A stretch of 58,210 bases of DNA, filler included, from Jimgerdemannia flammicorona (GCA_003990765.1; 3 parts of 3 records of this genome joined end to end with filler, not necessarily neighbours in it); one strand, 5' to 3'. Counted from the whole stretch's first letter, positions 1-43,726 are shown. Numbers and translations: made by a program. The notes: generated from the sequence alone by a model not told the origin.

Positions 1-366
1 ACCCACCCTGTCAGCAAATCTGCCACCAACTCCTCCCATCTTAATAACTTTTCCTGGATCCCTATCTGTCACCCCTCCTCAAAAACAAAGAGCCAATGTC
101 CAGCCAACCCCACCCACACTGCCACAACCCAACCTACAGTAAGCCACCTATTGCCAACACCTCCCACAAGTCTAGATTCCAGATCTTCCCAGCGACCTCT
201 CTCCCCATCTGGTCTCCTTTCAACCCCAAGGCGGTCCCCTACAGCTATCCAAAAGTCACCCAGAACCTCACACTCCCTCAGCCAATGTTCAGGCATTTGC
301 ACAAAACCCCCAACTTGCCCAACATTAAGCTCACAACAATGTTGATGTACTTTCCCACCAGCTCCA

Positions 367-1446
367 ATGAACCAGAAGAAGGGTGTCCCGAGGAACTACA
401 TCCTAAAGGAAGCTCCTCAGACCATCAAGGAATAAGAAAATCTCATCTGACAGGAACACCAGAAAGCTCACTAAGGACAGACATGCATAGAAGACAAGAT
501 TCGAAAACAACATCAACATTGGCCCCACCTCAGAACCCAAGTCTGAGACATCATTCAGAAATGTGACATCTGTCAGAAGTATCAAGGAAAGAAGAACTAT
601 CAAGCCCCTCTGCAACTGATTCCCACACCCACTCATATCTTCCAAAGATGGGGAGTAGATGTAATTGGACCTCTACCAGTTATACCAAGAAGAAACAAAT
701 ACATCCTTGTATTTATAGAATATCAGACCAAGTGGCCCAAGGCTTTCCCAATGGAAATGACAGATGCCTTAACTATTGTAGGCCTCCTCCATGGACTCAC
801 ACTCAGATATGGACCTCCAGAAGAACTTATCTCCGACCGAGGCACAGAATTCATCAATAACATAATCACAAGTTATGTCTGAATTCACAAGATCCACCTC
901 AAAAGGACCACATCATACCACCCCCCGACCAATGGCATGACAGAAAGAATGAACCAGACCATCAAGAAAGGACTTGCCCGAGTCAACCCTACTAATTGGG
1001 ACCTCTGCTTACCTGAGATCCTATGGGAAATTCAGAACACCCCTGCCATGTCCACCAAACAAAAGCCATTCGAAATGATGTTTGCCAAGAGAACCAGAAC
1101 TACTGACCATGAGAATCTCGGAGACCTCCTCAAGAAGGCAGAACAGTTATGAAATCAAGCCCAAGGACAGATTATCAAAGCCCAGGAAAGACAAAAGAAG
1201 TACTATAACCAAAAACAGAAGGATCAGGAGATCAAGATTGGAGATCAAGTCCTAGTTTGGAGAAGCATGATTGAGACAAACTTTGCTGCCAAACTAGAAC
1301 CGAAATGGGAAGGACCTTATCTTGTACATAACATCAGAGGAACCAGCATCTATTTAAGAAGCATGGATGAACGAACCCTGAGAACACCAGTACACATCAA
1401 TCGCCTCAAGTTATACTTCTCCTCATACCATAAATCAGAGAATTGA
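367..1446 (+). pseudogene. Gypsy integrase (HHCC, DDE core, GPY/F module), interrupted by point stops
   Basis: Manual translation: EHQKAH...KCDICQK, RWGVDVIGPLP, ISDRGTEF, SYHPPTNGMTERMNQTIK, LEPKWEGPY...VHINRLKLY. Confidence 0.93.
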
Positions 1447-1940
1447 CAACTGCCTCCAAACTCTTGTTCTCAGTTCCCTCCAAGCCCTACTAGTTGCCCT
1501 GCCTCAGTTCTAGGAACCCAATGGAACATATCTTCAGAGAATCTAAGTTCATCAAGAGAACCTCACCTTGGCTGAGAGGCTGCTCCAGGTCCACCAGCTG
1601 CAGGCATATTATGCAATTGGAGAACAATTGCAGAATCTTCCTCTCCCAGACCTAGCCTATGTCCAAAACACCACTGGCCTGAACAGAAGGAATACTACTG
1701 TTGCAGACAGATTATACACAATATATAAACGAAATCCTTCTGCCTTAATCCAGGCCCAGTTTTCCCTGAATGACCTCCAAAGATGACACTGCCCACCTAC
1801 CTCAGCATTATTCACCAAGTGGAGACCCTATTTCCTGAGGAGGAAGAGAGCCCCTGGAATGGAGTGACCATAGCTCAGATGATAATGATGGAACAGATAT
1901 AGATACAGAAGCTGCTTATGCCTATTGGGATAATGACTGA
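1430..1940 (+). pseudogene. Accessory ORF of family A (~170 aa, unknown function) between pol and PPT
   Basis: Includes track ORF 1568-1786 (QAYYAIGEQL...VADRLYTIYKRNP). Colinear with the 513-nt in-frame copy at 36623-37135, which keeps the ATG. This copy has ATA at the start, two 1-nt deletions and point stops. Acidic tail DDNDGTDIDTEAAYAYWDND*. Confidence 0.75.
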
Positions 1941-1979
1941 AGAATAGTCTGGGACAGACTACCCTTCAGTGGGGGCTGA

Positions 1980-3343
1980 TGTAACAGACCAAAACATACC
2001 ACCTGAATTATAACTTAGCCAGATGACGTGAACAATTAGCATACTCACTCCACATGATGTGACTTCCAGTGTATCATAGTTACTTATGCCCGCCACACTT
2101 ATAATTTGCCAAGACACCAGATCAGGATTGTTTACCTGTGTCCTGAGGACACACTCATGTCCTGTAGACACACCTGTACCCAGAAGACACACCCAAACAT
2201 TACCGAAGATAGCAAATCTATAGTTAGCCACATAGTAACCAGATAGCAACCAACTTGTATAAATTACCCCAGAGATAAGAGTGAATAAAACCTCAGTCCG
2301 AATTGAAGTGCAAACCAAAGAAGCCTCTAAAGATTGAGCAATTGGTCCCCTTATTCCCACTCCAGTCCACTTTCTGATATAAAGATTGATTGGTTCGCTT
2401 GCCAGATAAGCCTGAAGATTTGCTGCCTAAGTTCAAGAAGAACTTCACCACCTTTTGAGTAACCTGCCACTTAAGGAATAAGCTGCCATTTCCAAGTTAT
2501 CCTCCGCCTTCCCAAGAAAGCCACCTTGTTCAAGCCAGTTTCCAATGCAACTTCGCAGTGATTTGTCATGCAAACAAAGCCAGTCTTTAACACAACTTTG
2601 CCAAGAGACCCTTTCCCAGTTGAAGCCGCCGATTCAGGAAGAATCTGCACCATCGTATTCCCAGTTGAAGCTGCCGATTCAGGAAGAATCCATGCCATCG
2701 TATTCCCAGTTGAAGCTGCCGATCCAGGAAGAATCTGCGCCATCCAAGCTAATTCCCAGTTAAGCCACCGATTTCAAGAAGTCTGCCGATTCAGGAAGAA
2801 TCTGCGTCATCTGCTATTTCCAAGTTATCTGTATTCCCAGAAGAATCCTGCCAATTCAGGAAGAATCCGTGACATCTGAGTTATTCATTGTTCCCAGTGA
2901 GCCCATTATAGAAGAATCCATGCCATACAATTCCCAGTGAGCCAAATTGAGCTATCTGCCAGAAATCACATACCTTTGGAAATCATCACGCTACACGAGG
3001 ATCACCATACAGAGATCATTGCGCTACACAGAGATTGTCATGCAGAAATCACATAAGGAGAACCTCTAAATTACCAGACCATCACGCATAAGGAGATCAT
3101 CACACTACACATGAAATTCTGCCATTCCCAGTTGACCCAAGAAGAAAAAGACACACAAATCACCACTACACTCAGAGAACTGTCCCAAAAAGGAAACCAC
3201 TCACATAGTATCCAGATCTTGACTATTATACCACTAAACACCAAGAACATTTTGTTGCTTTTAACAAAGTAACTGGGGGCTCAAGCCAAACTACATCAAC
3301 CCCCCAACCTTGTAATTTGCCTCCATTGAGCCAGCCCGTTACA
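1980..3343 (+). repeat. Family A 3' LTR (~1.36 kb)
   Basis: TGTAAC/GTTACA inverted ends, GTATAAAT at ~2257, AATAAA at ~2284; homologous to 35391-36585 (minus). Confidence 0.88.
2613..2940 (+). repeat. ~45-bp tandem array in the U5 part of LTR A
   Basis: Unit TTCCCAGTTGAAGCYGCCGATTCAGGAAGAATCYRYRCCATCGTA at 2613, 2658 and 2703, then degenerate copies. Confidence 0.9.
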
Positions 3344-4015
3344 ATATATATAAGAATAATAGGAGAATAAATAAATACTGTACAGAAAAGATTAATATTA
3401 GGTAACTAGAAGTATATAGTATCCTCTAATAAAACAAAAATCAATTATTTTGGATTCTGCATATGATATCTATCTTTTTCTATCAACTTTGAATTTTTAT
3501 ATCAATTGATGTCATGTGACTTACATTAAGTGATATTTTATATCTTTGATTCAATTTTATAGTATCTTAGATATTTGAAATAATAATAATAATAATAATA
3601 TATTATTTGAGTATTTGCAGTCAATTTAAAGTAGTTTTACAGTCAGTTTAAAGTAGTTTTGCAGTATTTTCAATGTGGAAAAGTCATGTGACATCAATTG
3701 ACATAGAATTTGAAGTTGACTAAAAAAGCAGAAATCATATATAGAATCCAAAATAATTGATTTTTTGTTTTATTAGAGGATACTATATACTTCTAGTTAC
3801 TGTAACAGTGACCTCAGAATAATGACATCAGTACAGGAGACTGTCTTTTCTTACAAGCCATCAGATTAGAGCACAAGAAGATCATACTGCATATGAGATG
3901 AGCAATGATGACCAACTGTGAGTCATTGTGACCATAGTATAAACATCCTGAGAAATATAAAAGAAGGATCAAGAAACCACAGTAATAGCAATCAATAAGA
4001 CCCACCAATCTCAAA

Positions 4016-4882
4016 ATAGCTCAAAGACTCACTATAAATGAAATGCCTACTATCTGCCAAACCTCAAGGTCAAGGAATCACCAAGGTATCTCAGTCAAAG
4101 AAAGGATGTTCCAAGACATCAGAAGAGCCATAAGGACTTGCTCAAGAAGGACTCCTAGTATCAACCTGGGTACTAGTGATCCTTATCACTATATCCTCTA
4201 CCACTATAAAATGGAAACAAGAATTACTATTGCTACTGAATGCCTCCAAATGTGGCAGGAGTATGAAATAGAAAACCTCCTCTGCTGGGAGTTCCCACAG
4301 GCCAGTCCTCAAGAGCTATAAGATGCCACTTCCATGGATATATGTAAGATATGAATAGCTAAGAAGATCCATCAGATCTTCAGACATATACTATGGTTGA
4401 TCCTCAACTTGAAGTATGTTAGAGTCTCAGATTTCAAAGATCTATCATCCTGTCATATCAATACACTAGAAGCCAGAGTGGCCACAGAAGCTCAGTCCAC
4501 TATCACCCTCAATAGTGATAAAGTAGAAGACTTCTGGTACCCCATCCTCCAGGACAACCTAGACCAATTCCTGCAAGGATTGATCTCAGTATTTCAAGGC
4601 CCAAGCATCCAGGTTAGACCTCTCCAAGATCCCACATTTGTTCTCTATTTTGTGGAAGAGAATCTCATAGACTAGAGAGCTCCAGACCTCCTTTCCACTA
4701 CCAAACATAATGATGTCATCAGTGATGATGTCATCCTGCATGACATATATGAGATGTGCAATGAAGCATATAAAGTACACAAAACATGTGACCTACACAA
4801 TGAATTCATGGACCTCATCTCCTTCAAAAACATCCTGACCTCTGATGATAAAGCTCTTATGGTCTTGAACATTCTGCTCTAA
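4016..4882 (+). pseudogene. LTR-internal accessory ORF of family B (~290 codons), 5' LTR copy
   Basis: Track ORFs 4043-4321 and 4397-4675 are in one frame broken only by point stops; ends ...MVLNILL*. Start uncertain (ATA in all copies; upstream in-frame ATGs exist). Confidence 0.75.
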
Positions 4883-4890
4883 GTCTCCTG

Positions 4891-5025
4891 GTTATACTGA
4901 ATAATGCCAGCACCAGCATTCTGAGGTGATACAAATTTGTTCCAGCACTGGCATTTGATGTAATACTGAATAATGCCAGCATCAGTATTTTGATGTGATA
5001 TCGAATTATACCAGCATTCTGAACC
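4891..5025 (+). repeat. ~35-bp tandem array with palindromic core (AATGCCAG-CA-CTGGCATT) in U3 of LTR B
   Basis: About 4 units here, about 4 at ~12558-12690, about 3 at ~34688-34785, and units at ~57960-58062 (minus). Confidence 0.8.
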
Positions 5026-7580
5026 TGAACAATTATCAGTGCCAACCCTAGAACTTAGCAGTTTTTTCTATCCTGGCATTTTATTTTAGTTATTGGAATT
5101 TATATTTATCTTTATATCTTAGCAACCATTGAATTATATTTTGTATAAATACTCCTCTTTTTTCCTCTGAAATAAAGTCAGTTTCAGTTCACTTATACAC
5201 AATCTCTTACAAGCAATCTAAAAGATTACAAGACAGTTAAAGATAAGAAGTTTGAGGACTATAAGACCTTGGGAAGGCACTCCAATAAGAACTTGCTTAT
5301 AACAAACTTGAGTTAGTCTAAGAGATATATCTTGAAGAGAATCTGATATATTTGAAGAACTCAGCAATCACTACATGACAACTTAGTGTCCATTGACTGG
5401 TAATTCAAGATGAATTCCTCACTTATAAGCTGAAAAATGAACAACCCCCACAACAACTACCCTGACTACAAGAGTCACCCCTGTAAGAATTCAAGACAAG
5501 ATGGAAAGGCATCCCCCCACATTCTATGGATATACTACTGAAGATTCAATCCTGACCTTCATTGAAGACTTGGAATAATTTGCCACCATATGAGCCCTTG
5601 GTGTGGATGCACAATTGGCCCTTCTACCAGTCAGTCTCAGAGGACCTGCCAGAGATAAGTTCAATGCAGCCACTATTGCCAATAATAGTGCAGCCAAACT
5701 TGCCAACATGAAGGCCTTCTTCAGAACAACATATTATACTGAAGAGATCAAACAAGCTCTCAAGGATCAACTCAATACTATCTGCCAGAGACTTAGTGAA
5801 GATCCCAACTCATTCTATACCTGAATCTGCCACCAGATTGTTCTGGCTGGCTATGATGATTGCCTTAAGGAACAAATAGCAGATTTAACCTTCCTCAAAG
5901 GAGTTCACCATGAAATTGCCCTAGCAATCTGGTCTACCCCAGCTGCACTAACTCTTAATCAGAAAGTGGTCTTTGCACAGAGATATTGGACTGCCAGATA
6001 CTCTGTCAAATACTCAATGGAGAAAATAACTGGCATCAAGATGGAGCCATCAAAGCCAACTAGTATCATACCTGTCACAGTTGTAAACAGACAACCAACC
6101 CCACCTACCCCCAAGGCAGCCAAAGCTGACCCAGTGGAAGAACTCACTAAGCAGTTCGCTGAGATGACTGCACACCTTAGTGATGTTATTAGAGATGTCC
6201 AAAGTGCCAACAGGAGACCAGTGCAGAGATTTGTAGCTACTATAGAAGAATGTAATATCACATGCTTCAGATGTGGAGAAGAAGGCCACTATGCAAAGAA
6301 TTGCATAACCGAAACAAGACACAAAGTCCAACCAAGCAATGCTAGCAGAACTAGAGAACAAACCAATACAGTAGTCATCGAGGAGATTGGTGACACTGAT
6401 GATGAAGAATACTGTGAGGAGCTCGAATTCTACCCTGCTACTAAAGGTACCAGAACCCAGTCCAAGCCCTATGACAAGAAGAGCAACAGCAAGCTAGTTG
6501 GAAGACCAAAGAAGACCCCAGCTGTCACCATTCAAAGCAAGACCTAACTTGAGGAGATTGATCAAGATATGAAGTTAGATGAAGCTGCCTACCAAATCAT
6601 TGAAGGCACTACTCCAGTCTCAGGAGAAAGTGAGAGCAAGAAGGAACAGAAGCTGCACAAGATCAAGATCCACCAGTATAATATCTATAAGGACCTCAAG
6701 GAACAGAAGGTCAATGCTACTTTTGGACAACTAGCTGAAGTCCCTGCCTTCAGACAACAGTTGAGAGTAGGACTTGCAACTACCACTAAGAATCAAGAGT
6801 ACAAGATTGTAGAAGCTCACAATGCACAGGAAGAATCCAAAAACTCAGATAAAGAATCCGAAGACCAGTGCAAGACATCAGCCTATAACCTTTATCAGTT
6901 TGAAGACTGTATCTTTGATGTCATCATTGATACCAGTGTTGAAGGATGCCTTATGAGCAAAAAGACAATTGACTGCCTAGGTTGGGATATTGAAGAGTCT
7001 ACATATCACAGCAGATGGTACATGAGCTACCCCCCTTAGCAAAATCTGAGAAGTCCCCATTAAGATAGGAGGAGCTACCATCCCAGTAGATATGATTGTT
7101 TCAAGTGCCACCAACTATAACATCCTCATTAGCAATCAATGGCTTCACAAGGCCAAGGCCATCATTGACCTCAATGCCCAGAAGATGCAGATCAACTATA
7201 GAGGAAGAAAGGTATGAGTCTCTATCAATGTCCATAAAGGAGTTCTACCAGACATAGAGGAAGGAGATGAAGAGGACACAGAGGTCTTCATGCACTTGGT
7301 GAATAAGAACAAGAACAAGACACTCAAGCTCACAGAAGAGCAGTGGTACAATAAGATCATTGATGGCTATGCCCCTCAAGGAAGATGCCCCCATGGTACT
7401 AGGATGTACTGCTCTGAACACCTGAATGACTGCTGGTCTTGTATCAGTGAAGTTAGGAAAATCTGTCAACAGAAATATGAGCAAGAAGCCACCGAAGCAA
7501 AAAGGAAAGCCAAAGAAGATGACCAGCCCCCAGAGCTTCAGGCTGACAGTGATGATAAAGAGGAACAAGAATCGGACATC

Positions 7581-7993
7581 ACTCTCAAGGTCAAGAAATT
7601 TCACCCTAAAGCTAAGATCCCAGAATACAAGACTGAAGGAGCCATAGGAATGGACCTTATCAGCATTCAAGATGCTACACTCGAACCACAGACCAACACT
7701 CTACTTGGCACTGGAATTGAAGTCAAGCTGCTAGAGAACTATACTGGAATTATCAAGACCAGGAGCAGTCTTGCCAAAAGTGAAATCTAGTTGAAGGAGG
7801 AGTAATTGATCCTGATTACACTGGTAAGATCTTCCTTATAGTTAGGAATTACAACCCCACCACCCCATTCAAAGTCAAGAAGCATTACAGGATTGGCCAG
7901 ATGCTGATCTATGAAATCAAGAAACCCAAGATCACTGAAGCCATCGAACTCATCAACACCAAGAGAGGAGAACAAGGCTTTGGATCTACTGGA
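7581..7993 (+). pseudogene. dut: Trimeric dUTPase domain within Gypsy pol
   Basis: All five motifs: GMDL, RSSLA, GVIDPDYTG, RIGQM, RGEQGFGSTG. A 1-nt deletion at ~7788 is absent from the copy at 30109-30519. Confidence 0.92.
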
Positions 7994-10275
7994 AGAGGAG
8001 TCTATGCCACCACCAAGATTACACAAGAAAGACAAGGACCAGAACAAGTACACATATACCATTGGAGAAAACTTTCCCCTGGAGGAACAATTTCTCAAGA
8101 TCCTGCATCAGAATGAAGGAGTACTTGCTACAGACTTTAGGGATATATACAATCAAGAACCCAAGTACTACCATGAAGTTGATACTGGTGATACTAAGCC
8201 TATATATCAGAAAATCAGATCCATACCACCTGCCTACAGAGAATAGCTGTGAGCAGAACTGAAGGAAATGAAAGAAGCTGGAATCATCAAGCAAGCTATC
8301 AGCCCCTGGGCTTCACCCATTGTCCTTGCCCCAAAGAAAGGAAGCAAGCCTGGAGAGTTTGTACCAAGACTCTCATTGACTACAGGAAGCTCAATGCCAT
8401 CGCCAAGAAGGATAGACAAATATTCAAGAAATCCTTACCACCCTTGGAAGCAAATCAAAATACTACACCACCCTGGATCTGTTCTCAGGCTTCCATCAGA
8501 TTGGTCTCACTCAAGATGCCAGTGAGAAATCAGCCTTCATCATACCTAATGCCACCTATATCTACCTATGAATGCCATTTGGAATGTACAATACCCCAGC
8601 AAGTTTCCAGTGAATGATAAACAGAGTCTTCAGTAACAAGATTAGAAAATGGCTCTTTGTCTATATTGATGATGTGATCATCTTCAGCAATACTGTATGG
8701 GAATATATCAATCACATACAGCTAGCCCTCAAGAAGCTCAAGGAGCATGGCCTTACATCAAGCCCAAGAAATGCAAGTTTGCAGCTCAGGAAATCACCTA
8801 CCTAGGACACCTCATCAACCAGACTGGAATTCACACAGACCCCATGAATATTGAGGCTGTTGCAGCCTACCCAAGATCCAGAACAACTACAGAAGTCCAT
8901 GCCTTCCTTGGACTGGCCAGCTACTACTGAAGATTCATCAAAGGATACTCCAATATTACAGCACCTATCTATGAGCTACTGAAGAAGGAAACCAAATTCG
9001 AATGGACCAAGAAACACTAAGAAACCTTCAACAAACTTAAGACCAGGTTGAGTCAAGCACCTATCCTCAGAAGACTAGATTGGAACCTATAATTCATCCT
9101 ACAGACAGATGCAAGTGCTATAGGACTTGGAGCAGTCCTAGCTCAGAAGAAAGATAGACAGGAATATGTCATCTCCTATGCAAGCCAAGACACCTGTGGA
9201 GCAGAACAGAACTATGAGTCATGTAAGCTTGAATGCTTGGCAGTAGTCTGGGCAGTAGACAAGTTCCACTACTATCTAGCTGGGAAATACTTCACCATTC
9301 AAACAGACCATTCGGCTCTTGCCTGGCTATTCCACACTCTGAACCCCAAAGAAATATATGCCAGATAGATCTACAGACTGCAAGAGTATGACTGTACTGT
9401 CAAGCACCACTCAGGAAGAACCAATACCAATGCCAATGCACTCTCAAGGATACCCTGAAACACCCTCTATCAAGATTACTCAATATGAATAAGGAGCTAT
9501 ACTATAGATTAATTAGCAATCTTGGGTAGTGGAAGATGCCCAACCACCTTGAACCCTGGACAATCACTATCATCAACTGGACTTAGAAACAGTTTGAACT
9601 AGACAACACTATACTCAAAAAAAGAGGAAAGCTAGTAATACCCGAATACAAGAAGTATTAAGTAATGAAGGAAGTACACAAGCAAGGATACCTAAGAGGA
9701 ACCAATACATATGACAAGACAAGAAGAACCATATGGTGGCTCAAGATGGAAGAAGACCTGTACCAATTTGTCAAAAGGTGTGATAAGTGCTAAAACAGAA
9801 ATAAGATCAGCAAGACCAGGTACCCAGATCATCAAGAATTGAGCCTATCCCCTTCCACTACATCACAATGGATATGATTGGGCCACTACCAGTAATACTA
9901 TCAGAAAACTGCTATATTATAGTTATTGTAGACCTCTTCACCAAATGGATAGAAGCAGGAGCATTATAAGAAGCCAATGCCCTCTCTATAGTTAACTTTC
10001 TGCACTGAGAAATCATCTGCCACTACAAGATACCAAAGCAAATCACAACAGACCATGGCACAGAATTTGTCAATGGATTTTATGAGATAATATATCAGAA
10101 ATACAAGATCCAGCACATCAAGACCACCATGTGCCACCCTCAAGGAAATGGACAGACAGAGAGAACCAACAAGACCCTCAAAAACATCCTGGCAAAGATC
10201 TCAGAGACATATGAGAGTTGGGATAATTATCTCCCAACTGCCCTCTCTATTCTATGAGATATATGATCACAGAGC

Positions 10276-10711
10276 TAGTGCTCCCGATGAATCAAATCCA
10301 ATCAAATTTGACCCAAACTCAATTTGATTTGATTGAATCAAGGGTCCAATTCAATTCAATTCAAATCGAATCAAAGGTCCAATTCGATTCGAAGTTCAAT
10401 TTGAAGTTCAATTCGAACCTTAATTTTCAAAATGTAATAACTCGACGGAAACTCATCCAAATTTAACGTATATTAGCATGTTAGATTCACCGTATTAATG
10501 TTATTCTAACAAGCTAAAGTACATTAGATTTGGATAAGTTTATGCTGAGTTATTGCATTTTGAAAATTAGGATTCGAATCAGACCCTCAATTCGATTCGA
10601 CTTTTGATTCAATTTGAATTGATTCGAATTGAAAAATCCCCAATTCGATTCAACTTGTTTAACCCTCAATTCGATTCGATTCGAATTGATTTAACTCATT
10701 TGGGAGCACTA
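10276..10711. mobile_element. hAT-type MITE (436 bp) inserted in the integrase of element B
   Basis: TIR TAGTGCTCCC/GGGAGCACTA; 8-bp TSD CACAGAGC (10268-10275) / TACAGAGC (10712-10719); empty site in copy B2 at ~32805; subterminal TTCGAAT-like repeats. Confidence 0.9.
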
Positions 10712-11477
10712 TACAGAGCACACACTTTACCCCAAGAGAACTGCTCTTTAGAGAAGAAGATTCTGATGGAACCTCAGCCACAAATCTAGACCTAACTTGG
10801 AGATGGGTCAATGCAGAAATCAGGAGACTACACCAAATCAGGAAGAAGGCTGAAGATTACATCATCAAGTCATAAGTACTGATAAGGAAGAATGCAGAAA
10901 AGAATTACAAGACCCTAGAACCCATCCAAATCGGAGAAAAGGTTCTACTGTATAGAAATATGGTAGAAGCCTCATGGTCACAAAAACTGGAGCCCAAATG
11001 GGAAGGACTCTTCTACATATAATATATCAAGAGAACTACCTTCTGGCTTAGAAAAATCTCAGGAACCATACTACCCACCACAGTATATAGGAACAGACTC
11101 AAGAAGTATCATAAACCTATACAAGAGAAGTAAAATATAATGACCACCTGTAAGGTTCTAGTCCATGAATCATAACAGTATATCTTGTGACCAGCAGGCT
11201 ATCTGTCTGGACCATTCTCTAAGGGATATGACACCAGCAACTACTCATCCATGAGACTTTTGAAGCCAGAGGAGTTCGAACTGACAACTGATTGGTCAAG
11301 ATCAGAATCAGATCCTTGCTCTATATGAATAGAGTGATCCTTCACCATCATAAGAGAAGATGCCAGCCCATAAACACCACTTTTTGACCCCTTGCCAGAG
11401 GTTATGAGATCAGCAAATTTTTCAGAACTAGATCAATGAATAAGGATGCTCGAGAAGATCCTTATTCAGGAGAAAGA

Positions 11478-13046
11478 TATAATGGTGACCCAGAATGATG
11501 ACATTAGCACAGGAGACAGTCTTTCCTTACAAGTCACCAGATTGGAGCACAAGAAGATCATATAGCATATGAGATGAGCAATGATGATCAACTGTGAGTC
11601 ATTATGACCACAGTATAAGTATCTTGAGAAATATAAAAGAAGGATCAAAGAACTATAGTAATAGCAACCAACAAGATCCACCAATCTCAAAATAGCTCAA
11701 AGACTCACTACAAATAAAATACCTGCTGCCCACCAAACCTCAAGGTCAAGGAACTACCAAGGCATCTCAGTTGAAGAAAGGATGTTCTAAGACATCAGAA
11801 GAGCCATGAGGACCCACTCAAGAAGAACTCCTAGTGTCAACCTGGATACCAGTGACTCTTATCATTATATCCTCTACTGCCATGAAATGGAAACAAGGAT
11901 CACAATTACTACCAAATACCTCCAAATGTGGCAGAAGTACAAAATAGGAAACCTCCTCTGCTGGGAGTTCCTACAGGCCTGCCCTCAAGAGCTACAAGAT
12001 GCCACTTCCATGAATATATGTGAGGCAAGAAGATCCATCAGGTCTTCAGGCATACACCATTATTGATCCCCAACTTGGAGTATGTTAGAGTCTCAGATTT
12101 CAGAGATCTGTCATCCTGCCATATCAATGCACTAGAAGCCAGGGTGGCCACAGAAGCCCAGTCCACTATCACTCTCAATAGTGATAAAGTAGAAGACTTC
12201 TGGTACGCCATCCTCCAGGACAACCCAGACCAATTCCTGCAAGGATTGATCTTAGTATTCCAAGGCCCAAACATCCAGGTTAGGCCTCCCCAAGACTCCA
12301 CATTTGTTCTCTATTTTGTGGAAGAGAATCTCATAGACTGGAGAGCTCCAGACCTCCTTCCCACCACCAAACGTGATGATGTCATCAGCAATGACATCAT
12401 CCTGCATGACATATGCAAGAAGCATAATGAAGTATGCAAAGTATACAAAACACATGATCTACACAACAAATTCGTAGACCTCATCTCCTTCCAAGATATC
12501 CTGACCTCTGATGATGAAGCCCCTATAGTCTTGAACATTCTGCTCTAAGTCTCCTGGTTATACTGAATAATGCCAGCACTGGCATTCTGAGGTGATGTGA
12601 ATTTGTTCCAGTACTGGCATTTGATATAATACTAAATAATGCCAGCACTGGTATTTTGATTTGATACTGAATTATACCAGCATTCTGAACCTGTACAACC
12701 ATCAGTGCTAACTCTGGAACTTAGCCATTTTTCCTGTCCTAGCATTTTATTTTAGTTATTGGAATTTATATTTAGCTTTATATCTTAGCAACCATTCAAT
12801 TATATTTTGTATAAATACTCCTCTTATTTCCTCTGAAATAAAGTCAGTTCCAGTTCACTTATATACAATCTCTTACAAACAATCTAAAAGATAACAAGAC
12901 AGTTAAAAATAAGAAGTTTGAGAACTATAAGACCTTGAGAAGACACTCCAATAAGAACTTGCTTATAACAAACTTGAGTTAGTCTAAGAGATATACCTTG
13001 GAGAGAATCTGGCATATTTGAAGGACTCAGTGACTACTACGTGACA
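11478..13046 (+). repeat. Family B 3' LTR, containing accessory ORF copy 11692-12548
   Basis: Direct repeat of 3801-5380; includes track ORFs 11806-12066 and 12063-12548, split by a 10-nt deletion. Confidence 0.93.
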
Positions 13047-13526
13047 TTACCTAATATCAGTCTTTTCTATACAGTATTTATTTATTCTCCTAATATTCTT
13101 ATATATATATTTAATACTCTAGTAATTTATATAATTTCAAACTATAACTAATCTATTTAATAAATAAATTATCATTTATTATAAGTAGAAAGCATGCTTA
13201 AAGAGTCTTCTTTAGACAAAATATCATTGCTTTAATGTTTGAATTCAGTATATTAATAATATATTATATATATTTATATATATTTAAAAAGATTTTTTTT
13301 ATTATTTTTTTAAAAGGTAAAGTAAATAAGATTTTATAAAATAAATTATATGAGATTATAGAGAAATATTAAAAGAATAATTATAATAAGTTTTAAATAT
13401 TGTGACGTCTACAATCGACCCTGTCCAAATTCGGAGTATCCTGTGACCACAAGATCAGACAACATTATGGAGTGATAACTGGTGACCAGCCCAATCCGTC
13501 AAGTGATTTTACCAAAAGAAGACAAG

Positions 13527-14603
13527 ATGATTCGAGCCAAAATGAAGACCACGTTATTTAAGAAACCATACTCCGCCTCAGGGATCGGCACCAAAGAACC
13601 AAGTATCCACTACATAATGCCTCCCATTCACTGATCCAAACAGACCTCCCGCCACTCTACCCCTTTGCCTGGCCTAAAGACCCTGATCTTTGAAGCTATC
13701 AAGAAGGCCATCTGGTGCCCAGATACTTCTGAACACCTGAACTTCTACACCGAGGACCTTGGACACTTCATCAACTACTGGTATATAATGACCCAACAGC
13801 TCAAAGACACTACCGAATGAATGACCCTCTGGCATAACTATGAAATTAGACACCACCTTAACAATAAGACTCAAGAAGACAACTGGGAAGACCTCATTAC
13901 CAAATTGATAACCACCAGCCAGCTGATCAAGAGAGCTCTCTGCGTTCATCAGATATTCTGCCACATCCCCTGGGCCATAGCACACTTGCAAGGAGTAACA
14001 GCCGGCAGTCTTGCCTGTCTCTCAACTGAAGATCCAGACTGGATAGAATCAGAAGTAGCCAACTCTATTGGTAGCAACCGGGTCGCTGTAGGAAGCCAAC
14101 AAACCGAACCTACTCAGCCAGGTTTCCACACCACCTCACTCCAAGACAACCATCAAGGTCACCTAATGAGCCTTATGGAGATATTTGAAGGACTGCCCAT
14201 TACCATAGAAGTACCCGTTGGAGCTACCCCAACCACCCACCACCCTGACAGCCACAATTTACATCTCATCATTTGGGAACCGAATCAAGAAGAAGCCCAA
14301 GAGGTCCCTGTCTTTGAAGAGGAAGCCCTAGAACTCCAAGACCCTGCCCCTGAAGAAACCCCCTCTGACACTGAAACTGACGAGTCTTCAGAAGAAGAAG
14401 AGGAGCAACAGAGAGTCTACCAGTCCTCTGTCTGCATTCAAGCTGTTCAAGGGTTGGAGAATATTGTTGAAGATGACTGGCCACTTTTCTACCCCCTCAC
14501 CTCTTGGCCGGTGCTTCCCCCTTTTGAGGAGAGATATGATGAAGAAGAAATCGTAACCCAGCAAGATTTGCCTGCCGCGGATGAAGGGTACTATTTCCTC
14601 TAG
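13527..14603 (+). pseudogene. LTR-internal accessory ORF of family C (~358 codons, acidic C-terminus)
   Basis: Track ORF 13821-14603 extends in frame to ATG 13527 through two TGA codons (probably decayed CGA); homologous to the family B LTR ORF. Confidence 0.78.
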
Positions 14604-14650
14604 AAATACCACCCATCAGCCATGAGAATTGTGCAGCCATCATGTCAGCA

Positions 14651-14922
14651 TTTTGTCAGCAAGTCCGAATCCAGCGTTGCTACCCAGCACAACTGTTTCC
14701 AGCATTGCTATCCAGTGCCACCGTTTTCAGTGTTTTGTCAGTAAGTCCGAATCCAGCATTGCTACCCAGCACAACTGTTTCCAGCATTGCTATCCAGTGC
14801 CACCATTTTCAGTGTTTTGTCAGCAAGTCTGAATCCAGCGTTGCTACCCAGCACAACTGTTTCCAGCATTGCTATCCAGTGAGCAAGTCCGAATCCAGCA
14901 TTGCTACCCAGCACAACTGTTC
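14651..14922 (+). repeat. 82-bp tandem array in U3 of LTR C
   Basis: Units start at 14651, 14733 and 14815 (third unit truncated), then a partial unit at ~14882; core CCAGCRTTGCTAYCCAG. Confidence 0.92.
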
Positions 14923-15702
14923 CTGGCAACAATCGTCATATCCATATCCATCTGTATCAGCAAGTCAGCCCTTCACATTGTGCAAGCCAATAGTATAGCG
15001 AAGTTCGCCACAACATAGTATATCTTAGCCCCCCCCATAGCTAGCAAATTTGTATAAATAACCCTATATCTTAGAGTGAATAAAGCCTCAGTCAGACAGT
15101 TTTACAGAGAAAACACACTGCCTCCAAGAGAACGGAATTCCAAGAACAAAATAACTAGAGCAATGGATCGCTTGAGGTTTGAGTTAAAGAATTTCTCTTG
15201 CCATGGAAAGAAAGAAAATGTTACCTGACCGCCACTATTCGAGACCGCCATTCGAGATTCAAGACCCCGGCAACACAGCTAAAGAACCCAAGGAACCCAA
15301 GTTACCCAGCCAAAGGATACAAGACTGCTGCCAAAGACCCAAACGACTGCCAGGAACCTTTCAAGTTAACCAAGATGGACGAGCGAGCTGTCAACCTCCG
15401 TTTTCCCTGACCTACTGCACTACAGACTGCTTTAATTGACCGCCTAAAGAGCAAGACCATCAAGACCATCGCCGCCAAGTTATTCGCCACCCTTTTCCAC
15501 TAAACAATTGAGCTATCGACGTCCTGAGCCAATGAACAATCAAACTCCCACTATCAATTATCATATGAATCAGACAAACTGATCACATGACCATTGACCT
15601 GCAACCATCGCAAATGCACTCAGTCATATACTGCATGCTCCACCAAGTGGCACATTGAGCCATGCCAGAAGCAACTAGGGATACAAACCCAATGCCACAT
15701 TT

Positions 15703-15720
15703 TGGGGGCTCAACTGGGAA
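15703..15720 (+). promoter_or_regulatory. Primer-binding site, tRNA-Pro type
   Basis: TGGGGGCTCAACTGGGAA versus canonical tRNA-Pro PBS TGGGGGCTCGTCCGGGAT; two of the differences are at CpG sites. Confidence 0.75.
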
Positions 15721-16592
15721 AGATTTCAAAGACTTGACCATTTGGTTCAAGAACCCAGCTATCTACAGTGGAGAACTTAGCAGGACCAAGTCAGCAACCA
15801 AACCAGGGGCAGCAACAGCCCTCCTCAGTAGAAAAGAAAGCCCACACCCTTGTCAGAACAGTAGCCAGGACCCTATTCAACACCAGTAGCTAGAAAACCG
15901 AATCAGAAGAAAGAAGTGACCCAGATTACGGTTTGACTTCAAGAGAAAGGAGACGACTCAGAGGACAACCAGAACCGCCCCTTCAGATCCAAGACTTAGG
16001 CCAAGAAGAAGAAGAGGATATCCCCAAGGAGTATCAGACCCTTATCCATAGGAAGAACTAAGACAGAAGTGACTACATAACTACTGTTGTTACTCGAGTC
16101 ACTCCACTAGACTGGGTATACTTTGAAACATCAGAAGGAGAAGAGGACTACCATCCATATCAACCAGAGCAAGACGACGTTTGGGGATCAGACCATCAAA
16201 GGGACGAAATCAACCTATACTATTATCCAGACAGCAACACAAACCCACAATAAGGCAAACAAGACCTCACTACTTCACAACAGCAAGGGGCAGACGAACT
16301 CACTATCAGTTATATCAGTCCACTCCCACCATCAGTTGCTCGAACTTCAGTACCCTGGTCACTCACACCTCGCCACTATCACCAGTCAATCAGAAGATCT
16401 CCACTACTACCCAGGACTTCAACCCCAGCATTAATTAGAAGAGCCAGATTACCCTCACCCTCACCAAGACACCGCCCTCTGCCAGCACCACTAGATCATC
16501 AAGTACTAGCACCACCACCTTCCCCATCACCCCGAGAATCCGCCAGATCCCCTACCCCTGAACAATACTCAGATAGTGAAGATGAGCCAGAC

Positions 16593-19342
16593 ATGAGCTA
16601 CCTTCAGAAGTTCCATGGTGCAGACAATGAAGATATTGAGAAATTCTTTAGAGATATTGAAGTTCAAGCAGTCACCAAACAATGGAATGCTGCAAGAAAA
16701 CTCAGAATTGTGGAGTCACTCCTGAGAGGACCAGCCCTACAGAGGTATAATCAAGCCAAGCAAGCCGGAGGAGGAATTCATGCAGAGGAACTGAATGATG
16801 GCCTTCAACCTGATAGAAGCCATGTAGCAAGGTACATGATTCACAAAGCCTGGCTCTGTGCCCAGTTCAATGGATTCAAGCGCCAACAAGAAGTATAGGA
16901 GGCTTTGACCTATATGAGCCAAGCTGCCAATGAAACCCCCAAGAGTTTCTACCATCGGATTGAAGCTCAGATGATCAAGGTGAACCTTCAACCAGTAGTC
17001 CAACTGACTCTAGCCTCAACTACCTTCCTCAATGGCTTATACTCAGAACTCTAAAGGCTAGTTATCAGAATGGGATATTGAAACATTGACCAGCAAGTTG
17101 CTGGAGTACAAAGATGTTGGGAAGCAGATTATAGACCAGTACAACAAGTACAAGGCTATCATGAGCCAATCTGAGCTGAAACCCCAAGGACCCGAGGAAC
17201 AACTATGGAGCAAGAGAATGCCTTCCTCAGAGCCCAGATAGCCAACTATGAGAACAGACCAGCACCCACAAATCCGACTCCATTCAGGCAACCACAGCAG
17301 CAGCCACCATCAAGAGTTCAAGAAGACCCCATGATAATGCTCACCAAGCAAATGAAGTACCTGGCCATCGCAGTTGCCCAGCTGAAGAACCAAGGTAGAA
17401 GACAACAAGACTACTATCATGATAACAGACTAGACTACTGGCAACAAGACAACAGAGGTCCTGCTCCCGCACTACCAGCTGCAACTATAGTCTCATCAGC
17501 GACTAGTTCCTATGGTCCCACCTGCTTCAATTGCGGAAATCAAGGCCACATCCAGAGGAATTGTCCAAGGAACCAATCCACCCAGTCCAATAACAGAAAT
17601 GTCAACCTCTTTCAGGTAGATGAAGAGACTCAGGAGATGGAAGAAGAAGCAGCCTGGCTCCATGGTCAAGAAGATGACATCTACCCATACTTCGAGGCTT
17701 TTCCATCCAAGGTGACATGGGAAGCTGCCCCTGCAGAGACCAGAGGATGAGGAAGACTACGAAGGAACCCCCCACCTCAACTGCCAGTAACAATATCCAC
17801 AGACAAGCATCTGCGACATGGCCATTCTTCTTCAGACACTCCACAAGAACAGGAAAAGTGAGTTAGAAGAGATACTCCTGAACCGGAAGCCAGACCATCT
17901 AGGACAACCCCCAGCTCTACCCTGCCAGACCTTGAAGAAGATGAGCATATGAGCATAGAATCTTCAGCTGATGAAATGCCCATCAGGAATGAGAGACTAC
18001 ACCCCAAGGGACCAAGACACCGAAGAAGCAACAAGTCCCATGCAGCAGCCTCACTTTGGGAACATATCCACCTACAGAATGCTGGTCTTACAGTTGAGCA
18101 AGTCCTCAAGAATGTACTAGAGGTCAGGCAAAAATTCCTGAAAGAAGCCAAGGAAGATACCAAGAGACTTCCAGTCCAAGGACTACACACTCAAGAACCT
18201 AGCACTATCCATACAGTCCATGAGAGCCAGCAACATGAACATCAATCTACAAGACTCGCCAATGGAAAAGTGTATGGTGAAAATGTCAGAATTCTCGTCA
18301 ATACTGGAGCAGCAGTATGCATCATCACCCAAAGGATGTTGGAGCGAATTGGATGGAGAATAGATGAAGGAACCAAAGTAAGAGTTATCATGGCCACTGG
18401 ATCAGCTTCTACACTCCTTGGACTTGTCAGAGACATCCTCATTCAAGTTGGAAAGGCCTGCCTCAATGTACCCAAAGCTGTCATGACCCCCATAACCTCC
18501 TATGACCTGATCCTGGGAACTGACTGGTTAAGCCGAGTTGGAGCCAATGTAGATATCAAGAAACAACTCCTGGTCTTCTCCATTCATGGACAGAAGCACA
18601 AGGTGCCCATTGACTCGAAAGGATTATCCAAAAAGATGAATCAAGCCTCAGAATCAGAATGGCAAGGACATGGCGACACCCTCACTACTACTGAGGATGA
18701 AAGTGAGGCCAATTTCCTACAAGAACTAGGAAGTGATTTCGATGCCCCAAGGGACCAAGAAAGCAAACAAGAAGACTCTTTCATTGGAGTTATTGGTGTT
18801 GAAGGCCTGGAAGAAAGCATTGATAGAGCCATTAATGCAAGGGCAGCACTTGAGTTTGCAGGACCTTCTGCTCAACCATCACCACCACTGGTAGAAAATC
18901 GGATCATGCGAGCCTTTCGTCAAGGCATATGTGAACATTTCATCAACTTCCACTCACCAAGAGATGATTGCAGCAATTGCCGAATCCTGGATCTCAAGAA
19001 GATTCCAATGCCAGAAATTGATGACAAGGACAAATTTAAGCAAGCACCATCCCACAGTCGAATACAACCTCCAACCCTGAAGACCTTTAAGAAGACCTAT
19101 AAGGAAGGACAGAAGATTCTCGCCTGCCAAACATTCAAGTCCCTTACCATTGAAGGAGAAAGCAACAGCTCTTACACTATCACTTGGGCCCTCCAGATCA
19201 CACAGCCCACCTATGACAAGTATCAGAAGAGATTCCCTACCAGTAGGGAGGTCAAACAGCGAAATGAAGACTTTGTCAAGAAGGGACATTGTGATTGTGG
19301 AAAAACCTTTACCTGCTACTGGTGTGAACATTGAGATGTTCA
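16593..19342 (+). pseudogene. gag-protease of family C (gag probably extends upstream as a Pro/Ser-rich region)
   Basis: Track ORFs 16593-16898, 17205-17750 and 17949-19334 with zinc knuckle and protease motifs; catalytic D reads N. Confidence 0.85.
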
Positions 19343-20282: not shown

Positions 20283-21178
20283 TCACATAATGGCGGCGAT
20301 CTCCCTCTTTTCGGGCACCTGTGCGACGTCGCCGCCGAGGAGCTGGTGCTGGACGAGGTTCTTGAACACACCGCCTTCGCGATGGATGAGGTCGCCGTAT
20401 GCGCCAATCTCGGCCACGCGACCGTCCTCAATACACGCAATCACGTTCGCGGTGCGGATCGTTGAAATCCGGTGTGCAATCGTGAACACCGTCCGGCCAA
20501 CCATTAGGCGCTCTAGGGCGTCCTGAACGAGGGCTTCGGATTCGGAGTCTTTGGGCGGGAAGTGAGAGATGAAGTTGGTTAGAAAGCAAGTGGATGTATA
20601 ACGAATTGGCATGGTAGTGATAAGTGAGGTGGATGAATCTCTAGTGAAATAAGTACACCGATAAAAAAGAAGGCTCACCCAAAGCACTCGTTGCCTCATC
20701 CAGGATAAGAATCGATGGATCCTTCAACAAAGCTCTCGCAATGGCAATCCTACAAATGACAAGCCAAACAAACCGTAGTATGAGGCCTTATCTCCTCACA
20801 CCACTACAACGTCTCCAAACCAACTAATTTCCCCGCTTGACCCACCATCACCTCGACCAAGCCACGCCGAAACGCACCTCTGTTTCTGCCCGCCACTCAG
20901 GCTGATTCCACGTTCGCCAACGAACGTGTCGTACTTGTCTGGGAACGCGTCAATGAACCCCTGGCAGTTGGCTTTGATGGCAGCCTCACGAATTCTATCC
21001 ATTGTTGCGCCAGCGCGGCCATAGCTAATGTTCTCGGCGATGGTGCCGGCGAAGAGGACGGGTTCCTGTGGAATTGGGGTGATGTGTTTTTAGTCACCGG
21101 TTGCGTTAAATAATTTCAAACACATGCAAGAACGTGCAACCAACGTCACTCCTTTCACGCGAGACCAATCCAAGAGGG

Positions 21179-21219
<41 letters not shown>

Positions 21220-23891: not shown

Positions 23892-24411
23892 AGCGAAGAG
23901 GAAGGAGCAAGTTTAAGGCGGTGGTGACCTTTCACATTTTTTTGCGAGCACGTGCATAAATTTCTGACGCGACGGGAATCGTGGCTTAGTATGACTCAAA
24001 AACAGAATTTTCAGAGTAGCAAAACCAGAGTTGCTCCGAGACCAAGGATACGTAAAAGGTTAGGTCCAAGACTCAATCCAGATTCCGAAAGACTGCGCCT
24101 CCTCAACGCAGAATTACGCAAGTCGAAGACCCTTATTATATGAGGCGAAGTTTATTAAAAAGTACCTTATGGCCTATCTGGATTGGTACCCTTTTGAAAA
24201 TTTCATCCCATATAATTACATTCTACTATTATCATTATTAAACTTTCGATAATTAAAATATTTCTCTCTTTTAACTCTGGTGTAATGAGGTGTAATGACT
24301 GAAAAGAAATCTAATGGTGACTGTTAACTCTGAAACGTTACCTTTGGCACGTGATGTGGGCGCCTATACATTTCGCGGCGCACTCCTGCCACTCCCGCCT
24401 AACCTAACACC

Positions 24412-43690: not shown

Positions 43691-43726
<36 letters not shown>

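Follow-up and report, generated by a model that had tools for sequence, protein, structure and literature searches.

The window analysed here, 58,210 nt of DNA from Jimgerdemannia flammicorona (three parts joined end to end with filler), contains copies of three retrotransposons, A, B and C, each accompanied by an extra sense-strand ORF, and it raises the question of whether these ORFs are genes, whether they belong to one family, and what their products might do. Accessory genes are a mark of "complex" retroviruses, while LTR retrotransposons are usually taken to consist of gag and pol only, and a protein gene inside the LTRs is, to our knowledge, unusual for Gypsy-type elements. The first-pass annotation had proposed that one unrecognised, non-Env protein family is shared by all three elements, placed between integrase and PPT in A and inside the LTR in B and C. 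The placement agrees with what was found, with a putative LTR in the case of C, and the single family holds for B and C (BLASTP E=2e-15, 29% identity over 176 aa), which are indeed distinct Gypsy families, but does not extend to A, for which neither BLASTP nor hhalign gave a significant match.

Placement of the ORFs in elements A, B and C

Element B1 is a complete Ty3/Gypsy element, with direct LTRs bounded by TG...CA, a target duplication and a PPT ahead of the 3' LTR (Table 1), and with the domain order gag(CCHC)-PR-RT-RNase H-IN, in which a dUTPase lies between PR and RT (Pfam matches). Its extra ORF is situated wholly inside the LTR, on the sense strand and upstream of the LTR TATA/poly(A) module, and therefore in U3, the placement for which sag, nef and bel had been named as precedents; being in U3, it occurs in both LTRs, and the genomic RNA carries it at its 3' end. 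The module is common to the three elements, recurring at 12809 and 34905 in B, at 2257-2289 in A and at 15052-15084 in C (five matches versus 0.01 expected by chance). A further TATA-like sequence upstream of the B ORF, TATAAAAG, recurs at 3956, 11632 and 33736, in all three B LTR copies, and at 295-302 of L001, an environmental relative whose positions 285-375 align to the TATA-to-ATG segment of B with a score reached by 13, 0 and 1 of 300 shuffles. With TATAAAAG before the ATG and the LTR AATAAA downstream, the gene would form a self-contained cassette, such that each LTR, solo LTRs included, could yield a monocistronic transcript some 1.2 kb long. Tandem repeats separate the ORF from the LTR promoter in both B and C.

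No second C LTR was found within the window, and the limits of the one present are thus inferred, its end near 15425 (...CACTACA) having been set by analogy with the B terminus ...CACTACATGACA and by an ATTGAC motif in the leader that both elements show 10-11 nt beyond. The C ORF is flanked by the TG start (13401) and the LTR promoter module (15052), with a weaker TATA-like sequence, TATTTAAG, ahead of it at 13553, and by analogy with B the C gene very likely lies inside U3 in the same layout. Both of its TGA stops correspond to R in the intact relative P0018, and 13821-14600 is open (260 aa). The domains of element C seen by Pfam are CCHC and PR only.

The reading frames had been started too far downstream; the starts are MPTIC... 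(4043) in B and MPPIH... (13617) in C. Nine of the ten peptide strings quoted in the first-pass annotation were recovered verbatim in the frames given there (A, 1598-1783; B, 4106-4201 and 34135-34227; C, 13686-14024), while the tenth, TECLQMWQEYEIGNLL, occurs nowhere, and the quoted "B" string is a composite of LTR copies, B1 reading ...EYEIENLL and the 3' LTR copy ...KYKIGNLL.

Of the first copy of element A, the window includes IN as the sole pol domain (Pfam rve, rve_3 and MLVIN_C matches on ORFs 547-879, 883-1149 and 1153-1443) and one LTR, similarity to the second copy reaching 3331. Its 3' ORF begins with ATA at 1430, the second copy having ATG at 37135, is interrupted by two in-frame stops (1511 and 1544) and shifted in frame twice (near 1784 and 1850), and ends in an acidic tail (...AAYAYWDND) 41 nt before the LTR start. 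The second copy, which runs on the minus strand between 37135 and about 36620, is more decayed. Intact relatives exist (P0023-P0027, 67-69% identity), and the A 3' ORF is real, separate and conserved.

Table 1. Features of elements A, B and C in the 58,210-nt window
Feature	Position	Strand	Remarks
Element A pol 3' end (integrase core and C-terminal domain)	1-1446	+	cut by the window edge; stop TGA 1444-1446
Element A 3' ORF	1430-1938	+	about 171 aa when intact; between pol and PPT; overlaps pol stop
Element A 3' LTR	1980-3335	+	starts TGTAACAG after GGGGGCTGA; module 2257-2289; end approximate
Second A copy, 3' end (ORF and LTR)	35404-37200	-	about 70% DNA identity to copy 1; heavily decayed
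Element B1, complete Ty3/Gypsy element			9.2 kb; 4-bp target duplication TTAC at 3797-3800 and 13047-13050
B1 5' LTR	3801-5380	+	1,580 bp; TG...CA ends
TATAAAAG (TATA1)	3956-3963	+	about 87 nt upstream of B ORF ATG
B LTR-ORF copy 1	4043-4882	+	279 codons, MPTICQTS...LNILL; three internal stops, 4319, 4352, 4673
35-bp tandem repeat, x3.6	4894-5017	+	between B ORF and LTR promoter; same array at 12560-12682 (3' LTR)
LTR promoter/poly(A) module GTATAAAT-N20-AATAAA (TATA2)	5143-5176	+	B1 5' LTR
B1 internal region	5381-11477	+	gag (CCHC), protease, dUTPase (7218-8113), RT, RNase H, integrase; Pfam matches
B1 PPT AGGAGAAAGA	11468-11477	+	directly before 3' LTR
B1 3' LTR	11478-13046	+	holds ORF copy 2
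B ORF copy 2	11719-12548	+	start ATA; TAA at 11788; 10-bp deletion with frameshift near 12020; C-terminal 174 codons (12024-12545) open
Second B element, 5'-truncated	29400-35148	+	3' LTR 33581-35148; PPT AGGAGGAAGA at 33571
B ORF copy 3 (second B element)	33823-34680	+	four internal stops
Element C 5' LTR, inferred	13401-15425	+	starts TGTGACG after AT-rich DNA
C LTR-ORF	13617-14603	+	328 codons, MPPIH...; two TGA stops, 13632 and 13818
82-bp tandem repeat, x2.8	14651-14881	+	between C ORF and promoter module 15052-15084
Element C gag and protease	15660-19331	+	CCHC 17175-17747; protease 17862-19331; cut by assembly gap at 19343

A protein family encoded by B, C and environmental relatives

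Elements B and C are 24-31% identical in most gag/protease segments, and the divergence of their ORF products is close to this, which fits a long co-inheritance of the ORF with the element. Comparison of B and C by tblastn inside the window gave E values of 1.5e-14 to 1.9e-16 in the ORF frame only; outside the ORF, no DNA-level alignment was obtained between subfamilies. A profile search of 1,835,955,588 proteins returned seven relatives, five of them at E<=1e-30, with matches to intact relatives at E=1e-40 to 1e-108; P0018-P0020 came in addition from a word search. All the B/C-type relatives are unnamed or "hypothetical" proteins from short environmental contigs, the intact ones being P0007/P0014 (247 aa), P0018 (325 aa), P0010 (342 aa) and the L001 ORF (291 aa). 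Long open frames are kept in four subfamilies with a mutual identity of 26-56%, the environmental ones being named D (L001/P0022) and E (P0010). Elements B and C and at least these two environmental subfamilies thus code for a genuine retrotransposon protein, some 250-340 aa long, that had not been named before.

All six sequences that reach the N-terminus start with MP[PAT], and the motifs WxEYEI, AKKxHQxFRHxP and LQDNPDQ[FW]LQ are conserved across the family, with the hydrophobic tail motifs DLIxF and PxVLNF present in B, D and E and absent from C. The first 30 residues carry a charge of +3 to +6 in P0022, P0007 and P0018 and of +1 in P0010; overall, the intact relatives have a net charge of -12 to -28, with an acidic tail that contributes roughly -8 to -11 per 30 residues, and the maximal 19-residue Kyte-Doolittle mean in six intact proteins is 0.59-1.07, in agreement with the acidic tails and the lack of a TM segment described before. 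The architecture is that of a short basic N-terminus, a domain of about 200 aa predicted to be mostly helical, and an acidic C-terminal tail modelled as unstructured. The AlphaFold model of a B/C-type protein is poor (mean pLDDT 46.8), which leaves a DNA-binding fold without support.

No described domain was recognised, in line with the first-pass annotation, to which the protein was unfamiliar from fungal Ty3/Gypsy elements: a Pfam scan of four intact members at E<=1 returned no family, env families included, a PDB sequence search with both profiles at E<=1 gave no match, and neither did Foldseek; literature searches found no description of the B/C LTR-ORF protein. An identity as Env was rejected, given a net charge of -20 to -28 and the lack of a signal-like or TM segment and of any Pfam env family, and the Pfam (E<=1) and PDB profile searches showed no similarity to Sag, Nef, Bel or Tas.

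Every ORF copy in the window is broken by stops or frameshifts. These copies are dead and have decayed nearly by transitions only (98 of 104, 114 of 118 and 111 of 120 ORF differences), with an excess of C>T at CpA, CpC and CpG, and such transition-dominated decay indicates a host that mutates or methylates repeats. This state of the copies, together with the missing annotation of the relatives and a dN/dS among the B copies of the window (0.40-0.44 between elements) that is at the level of the neutral control (0.49, the two LTRs of one element), would be expected if the open frame were non-functional, with the region under conservation for its cis-acting role in the LTR and with gene-caller artefacts as the source of the environmental proteins. 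We regard that explanation as highly improbable, since the protein match (E=1e-15) is confined to one frame while the DNA outside the ORF is unalignable, no fewer than five independent ORFs, 247-342 codons long, have stayed open in lineages that are 26-56% identical, both the start codon and the motif at the N-terminus are retained, and the identity between subfamilies falls by codon position in the order 2 > 1 > 3. The comparison of substitution rates between subfamilies, put forward earlier as a check, points the same way, with pN of 0.44-0.52 versus pS of 0.62-0.79; four of the five pairs gave pN>=pS in none of 500 bootstraps and C-D did so in 8 of 500, although the protein-guided alignment biases this test and pS has reached saturation.

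Relationship of the element A ORF to the family

The extra ORF of element A is probably an unrelated, independently acquired 3' gene, with the family limited to B, C, D and E. When A was compared with B and C by BLASTP, E was 0.44 and 46, and the pairwise HHalign comparison suggested in the first-pass annotation was negative for A versus B/C, with a probability of 0.3-0.4% whether 2 or 7 A-family sequences were used and with or without predicted secondary structure, the homology of B and C having been established by BLASTP, tblastn and profile search. In an ungapped profile diagonal test, offset 16 ranked 7th and 465 of 1000 column shuffles reached the score of the best diagonal. Element A lacks the best-conserved B/C block, LQDNPDQFLQ...GPxI, its ATG overlaps pol, and it has no TATA of its own; a Pfam scan of two A-type members returned noise only (LST1, E=0.062; Peptidase_C21, E=0.2). 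On the other side stand the top hhalign local alignments of A with B/C, which are the very patches aligned by eye before, in collinear order, and the HMM scores, which fall in the upper tail of the shuffles in seven of seven tests (matched by 2 to 165 of 1000 shuffles, p 0.002-0.165). The predicted helices and loops of A agree by 89% with B/C residues of about 18 to 152 at an offset of 17-18, compared with at most 66% at other offsets, a level reached by none of 2000 element-order shuffles, even though the underlying models are of low confidence (mean pLDDT 47 and 54). Queries of both types also adjoin the same three ESM Atlas clusters, and both genes are 3' of pol and acidic-tailed.

By sequence or profile, then, homology of A to B/C is not significant, and the earlier proposal that the gene "moved relative to the PPT" is not deducible from A. 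In L001, the stop codon is directly followed by a PPT-like run and TGTAAT, which hints, with weak statistical support, that the ORF of subfamily D occupies an internal position.

Possible roles and comparison with known systems

We incline slightly to the view that the B/C ORF, as a real accessory gene in U3, has a trans-acting, non-structural role. A more specific model, the likeliest single mechanism but one that we advance only tentatively, is that the protein would regulate its own element in trans by feedback, much as Tas does in foamy viruses. In this model the helical domain would bind either DNA or a host factor, transcription might be activated by the acidic tail, and the response elements would be the tandem repeats that separate the ORF from the main promoter. 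Points against our reading of the gene come from element C, where the tail motifs are absent, the only TATA upstream of the ORF is TATTTAAG, and the LTR limits are set by analogy. Rather doubtful is the extended version, in which a mobile Gypsy regulatory cassette would have crossed the PPT boundary (internal in A and D, in U3 in B and C), with each LTR, even one surviving alone once its element is lost, being an autonomous gene for a Tas-like activator that serves the whole family in trans.

A post-transcriptional factor resembling Rev, Rex or CERV, which would bind the unspliced element RNA and aid its nuclear export or use instead of activating transcription, could account for the basic, Arg-rich N-terminus of some subfamilies (P0022, P0007 and P0018) and for the tail motifs PLVLNFLL and DLISF, which are candidate export signals; CERV of the C. 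elegans element Cer1, described in the source text as made from a spliced mRNA and acting in RNA export (PMC10309623), shows that a factor of this kind can be required by an element of the Gypsy type. Such a function is nonetheless distinctly unlikely, as neither feature is kept in every subfamily, the protein is very acidic overall, and searches of Pfam, PDB and Foldseek gave no sequence or fold similarity to RNA-binding families. We give equally little credence to an anti-defence protein in the manner of VANC, the second role raised in the first-pass annotation, countering DNA methylation, RNAi or repeat-induced mutation: the transition-biased decay of the dead copies does reveal a host process to act against, but the copies in the window went unprotected, no similarity to known suppressors came up in the Pfam library scanned, and the argument is purely circumstantial.

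A conserved, non-Env orphan gene lying wholly inside Gypsy LTRs would mean that traits of complex retroviruses (a long coding U3, a possible internal promoter and possibly self-regulation) arose independently in retrotransposons, and solo LTRs would be potential protein-coding genes, beyond mere promoters. Annotators would gain a new family to spot in "non-coding" long LTRs, and the elements offer a system for studying how the LTR boundary, with its PPT and att sites, shifts around a gene.

Among known systems, the tas/bel gene of foamy viruses is located 3' of pol, extends into a very long U3, has its own internal promoter and encodes a protein with an acidic C-terminus. The B gene is likewise 3' of pol in a long U3, with a putative promoter of its own upstream, an acidic C-terminus in its product and a proposed feedback on the LTR; it differs in that the whole gene, and not its end alone, lies inside the LTR of a Gypsy element without env, and searches revealed no likeness in sequence or fold. 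MMTV sag and lentiviral nef also lie in or overlap U3, Sag being a membrane glycoprotein and Nef starting with a myristoylation signal. As with these genes, the coding frame of B, and very likely that of C, is inside U3 and thus duplicated in both LTRs, whereas the protein has no hydrophobic segment, starts with MP and matched no Pfam family.

An unexplained extra ORF has also been reported from Gypsy elements of fungi, some of which resemble B in placing a dUTPase between protease and RT; the likeness is one of description, since the source text specifies neither the sequence nor the position nor the family of this ORF. Plant Tat-clade Gypsy elements carry extra genes (PMC2774666), and the ORF3 genes of bdelloid rotifer LTR retrotransposons are described as encoding recognisable enzymes or env-like proteins (PMC5408684); common to these and to B/C is an ORF beyond gag and pol that is of the same type across element lineages, although the B/C protein, unlike bdelloid ORF3, is an orphan encoded inside the LTR. 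The B/C protein also resembles CERV, with its regulatory role, as far as the published description allows the two to be likened (PMC10309623), both being lineage-specific accessory proteins, other than Env, that Gypsy-type elements encode.

The LTR-ORF protein of elements B and C

Two of the three Ty3/Gypsy elements of the window (A, B and C) carry homologous genes for an unnamed acidic protein, within the LTR in B and very probably also in C, here called the LTR-ORF. Their translations align by BLASTP at E=2e-15 with 51/176 identities, and tblastn inside the window recovers the match in the ORF frame only (E=1.5e-14 to 1.9e-16). The core observation of the first-pass annotation holds for B and C and can be widened to an orphan family, some environmental members of which are intact. 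Of the ten peptide strings given in that annotation nine occur verbatim in the window and one B string is absent; its "B" peptide was stitched from several LTR copies. The true starts lie upstream of those it gave, for B at MPTICQTS (4043) and for C at MPPIH (13617). The gene is broken in every window copy (see the table).

A profile of the window copies, run against 1,835,955,588 representative proteins, found seven relatives at E<=0.001, five of them at E<=1e-30, and a word-based search added three more. All of these relatives lie on environmental contigs (JGI/IMG or ENA) with lengths of 633-4848 nt and are unnamed or called "hypothetical protein". Identity among the subfamilies, which include the environmental D and E, is 26-56%. 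The start MP[PAT] is found in all six family sequences that reach the N-terminus, the conserved motifs are WxEYEI, AKKxHQxFRHxP and LQDNPDQ[FW]LQ, and every subfamily has an acidic tail, with the tail motifs DLIxF and PxVLNF in B, D and E. In the intact members the net charge lies between -20 and -28, the N-terminus is mildly basic and hydrophobic segments are lacking; the protein is therefore not Env, in agreement with the initial reading of an acidic-tailed product lacking a TM segment. A metagenome scan yielded one related locus out of 169 candidate stretches, scans of viral contigs returned none, and no fused or longer form was present among 7250 candidates.

That the protein had not been recognised from the sequence agrees with the searches: the family has no match in Pfam or PDB sequences, and Foldseek of the low-confidence B/C model against the PDB gave 0 matches at E<=0.001, with generic helical bundles only at E>0.6. 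The mean AlphaFold2 pLDDT is 46.8 for B/C (poor, mostly helical) and 54.3 for the 3' ORF of A. In the ESM Atlas the closest clusters are unnamed or unrelated (scores 0.89-0.93, recognition of the B/C query being under the bar), and A, in its Atlas model of pLDDT 0.76, matches only helical HisKA/HAMP-type proteins at TM<=0.37.

With regard to selection, a stronger argument than pN/pS is that extended open frames which all begin alike have been kept in lineages whose flanking DNA is unalignable. Between subfamilies, identity by codon position follows the order 2 > 1 > 3, and nearly every bootstrap puts pN (0.44-0.52) under pS (0.62-0.79), the alignment being protein-guided, which introduces a bias, and pS being saturated. 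As a selection test the dN/dS of the three B copies proved uninformative, at 0.40-0.44 between elements versus 0.49 in a neutral control formed by the 5' and 3' LTRs of one element, which diverged after insertion. Among the three B ORF copies 94-97% of the differences are transitions, without codon-position bias, as are 98 of the 104 differences in the ORF between the two LTRs of one B element. The three B LTR copies as a whole likewise diverge almost purely by transitions, with CpG nearly absent; C>T is commoner than the reverse change, and it is mainly CpA, CpC and the scarce CpG sites that have changed. This decay looks like a repeat-directed or methylation-driven host mutation process.

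Elements of the window and the position of the gene in U3

Three Gypsy-type elements, nested or adjacent and all on the + strand, make up the window's first 19 kb. The complete B copy, B1, is flanked on both sides by a TTAC target duplication and has the internal order CCHC gag, protease, dUTPase, RT, RNase H and integrase. The view that A, B and C are distinct families is borne out by identities of 32-48% between the integrases of A and B and of mostly 24-31% between the gag/protease segments of C and B, and the LTRs show no alignment outside the ORF, the promoter module and the other features noted here.

Features of the window and intact relatives of the LTR-ORF protein
Feature	Position	Strand	Description
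Element A	cut by window edge	+	integrase domains up to pol stop 1444-1446, then 3' ORF, then LTR
A 3' ORF	1430-1938	+	
Element A LTR	begins at 1980	+	begins with TGTAACAG
Element B1 LTRs	3801-5380 and 11478-13046	+	87% identical to each other
B1 5' LTR ORF copy	4043-4882	+	three stops
B1 3' LTR ORF copy		+	start lost, one stop, 10-bp deletion
Element B1 PPT (tract before 3' LTR)	immediately 5' of 3' LTR	+	AGGAGAAAGA
Second B element	about 29400-35148		5' end truncated
Third B LTR copy	33581-35148		
Third B ORF copy			four stops
Element C	13401 to assembly gap at 19343	+	starts after AT-rich DNA; gag and protease
C ORF copy	13617-14603	+	two TGA codons, each at an Arg position of an intact relative
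Promoter/poly(A) module	A LTR 2257; B LTRs 5143, 12809, 34905; C 15052		
Host genes with introns	20-27 kb and 39-49 kb		after elements A to C
B-type relatives	P0007, P0014		intact, 247 aa
C-type relative	P0018		intact, 325 aa
Subfamily E	P0010		intact, 342 aa
Subfamily D	contig L001, ORF 376-1251		intact, 291 aa; DNA retrieved

Five matches to GTATAAAT-N19/20-AATAAA are present in the window versus 0.01 expected, the one in A at 277 nt into the LTR. This motif may be read as a common LTR promoter in which the poly(A) signal immediately precedes the start of transcription. Because this putative module lies downstream of the ORF in B and C, the ORF is placed in U3. The earlier claim that the gene lies inside the LTR is firm for B, where it is founded on the LTR pair, the TTAC duplication and the module 3' of the ORF, whereas for C, of which the window holds one LTR and no second, the very probable location in U3 is deduced from a TG start at 13401, from there being no purine tract from the ORF to the module, and from gag downstream.

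The octamer TATAAAAG is located about 87 nt 5' of the B start codon, at 3956, and is kept in all three copies; it is likewise present in the D-type environmental contig L001, 80 nt before the ATG, and the TATA-to-ATG segments of L001 and B align with a score that 13, 0 and 1 of 300 shuffles reach. Before the C ORF there is only TATTTAAG at 13553. The interval from ORF to module contains a 35-bp repeat (x3.6) in B and an 82-bp repeat (x2.8) in C. We infer that a self-contained cassette could be formed by the putative promoter, the ORF and the poly(A) signal which the LTR itself supplies, in B the AATAAA at 5171. The idea that the 35-bp repeats of B derive from an earlier LTR start was not supported by comparing them with the start of the B LTR, their best matches being elsewhere and the score being reached by 27 and 41 of 300 shuffles.

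Several further features of these elements and their surroundings may be recorded. The dUTPase of B lies between protease and RT at 7218-8113 (Pfam E=3.5e-12) and 29995-30498 (E=1.7e-23), a placement which PMC2864245 also gives for PosPlaTy3-5 of Postia placenta. The insertion target of B1 was a palindrome of about 520 bp starting right where the A LTR ends; within it 3402-3800 shows 74% self-complementarity, and 3344-3405 matches 13047-13108 in reverse complement at 93.5%. A 45-bp tandem repeat (x2.9) is found in the A LTR at 2613-2744, downstream of the promoter module, and this LTR continues for about 1 kb after the TATA/poly(A) module, so that either its R-U5 is unusually long or its true end lies before 3335. 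In element C the putative LTR end is separated from the B-alignable gag by some 700-1000 nt (15660-16630), largely a single frame with two stops; this stretch may extend gag at its N-terminus or represent a long leader. The host-gene stretches 20800-26900 and 39200-49200 encode, among repeats, an ABC transporter, a Cys/Met PLP enzyme, a prefoldin subunit, an RNA polymerase 7-kDa subunit, a fatty-acid hydroxylase and a GNAT acetyltransferase, and 52001-54000 is purine- and G-rich with a strong strand skew (GC skew 0.51), adjoining 54-58 kb at 26-30% GC.

The 3' ORF of element A and the D-type contig

The 3' ORF of A is genuine, with five intact or partial environmental relatives of 67-69% identity, up to 172 aa long and ending in ...AYPYWDDD. 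Its placement between integrase and PPT was correctly described: the start codon, ATA here and ATG in a second copy at 37135, overlaps the stop of pol, and 41 nt separate the end of the ORF from the LTR. Two stops and two frameshifts interrupt the window copy. The proposal of one family in three elements is sound for B and C but unproven for A from sequence comparison, with BLASTP at E=0.44 for the pair A-B and E=46 for A-C. The hhalign comparison, proposed at the outset as a check, went against it, at a probability of 0.3-0.4% with 2 or 7 A sequences and with or without predicted secondary structure, and an ungapped profile test of A versus B/C was negative. On the other side, the A-B/C HMM scores fall in the upper tail of their own shuffles in 7/7 tests, if weakly (2-165 of 1000), and the best hhalign alignments are the very patches quoted in the first-pass annotation and keep their sequence order. 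In its predicted helices A agrees at 89% with the pattern of B/C residues 18-152, versus 66% at other offsets, in models of low confidence, and this agreement is reached by 0/2000 element-order shuffles; in the ESM Atlas both queries adjoin the same three clusters. We give somewhat less than an even chance to the possibility that A belongs to the B/C family as a distant and shorter member.

The gene had also been claimed to occupy two positions relative to the PPT, which is unproven; independently of A, the L001 contig gives weak support. Directly 3' of the ORF stop L001 has GGAGGGAGGAT and then TGTAATAAG, in close likeness to the B PPT/LTR junction AGGAG[AG]AAGA-TGTAAT; for the 284 nt after the ORF the best alignment is to the initial 220 nt in two B LTR copies (score reached by 3 and 15 of 300 shuffles) and to another part in the third copy (30 of 300), and the region 5' of the L001 TATA matches the same B segment weakly (71-240 of 300). 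In a scan over the window the L001 24-mer GGAGGGAGGATTGTAATAAGTATT is not the top match to the B PPT/LTR junction, the purine-rich DNA at 52-53 kb scoring higher. On balance we lean slightly towards an internal position of the D-type ORF. L001 also contains a 28-nt motif, GTCAGGCGGAAC...TCAGAACA, twice with 86% identity, at 170-197, upstream of the ORF TATA, and at 1481-1508, about 220 nt past the putative LTR start; it could be a common regulatory site.

Function and comparison with known systems

The LTR-ORF protein may act in RNA export, by analogy with CERV of Cer1 (PMC10309623), or in anti-defence. Extra genes of retroelements are familiar: PMC2864245 draws an "additional ORF with unknown function", PMC2774666 notes extra genes in Tat-clade elements as well as a fungal chromovirus clade, and PMC5408684 reports ORF3 genes that rotifer retroelement lineages have in common. 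The literature search found no protein-coding frame described inside a fungal Gypsy LTR, nor the LTR-ORF family. Accessory genes as such are known; what is new here is a retroelement accessory gene wholly within the U3 of a Gypsy LTR. In its anatomy the LTR-ORF most resembles the regulatory genes that complex retroviruses carry 3', and especially tas of the foamy viruses, which is such a gene with an internal promoter. The likeness lies in a gene 3' of pol and in U3 with a putative promoter of its own, in a predicted helical domain joined to an acidic tail, and in repeats adjoining the main promoter.
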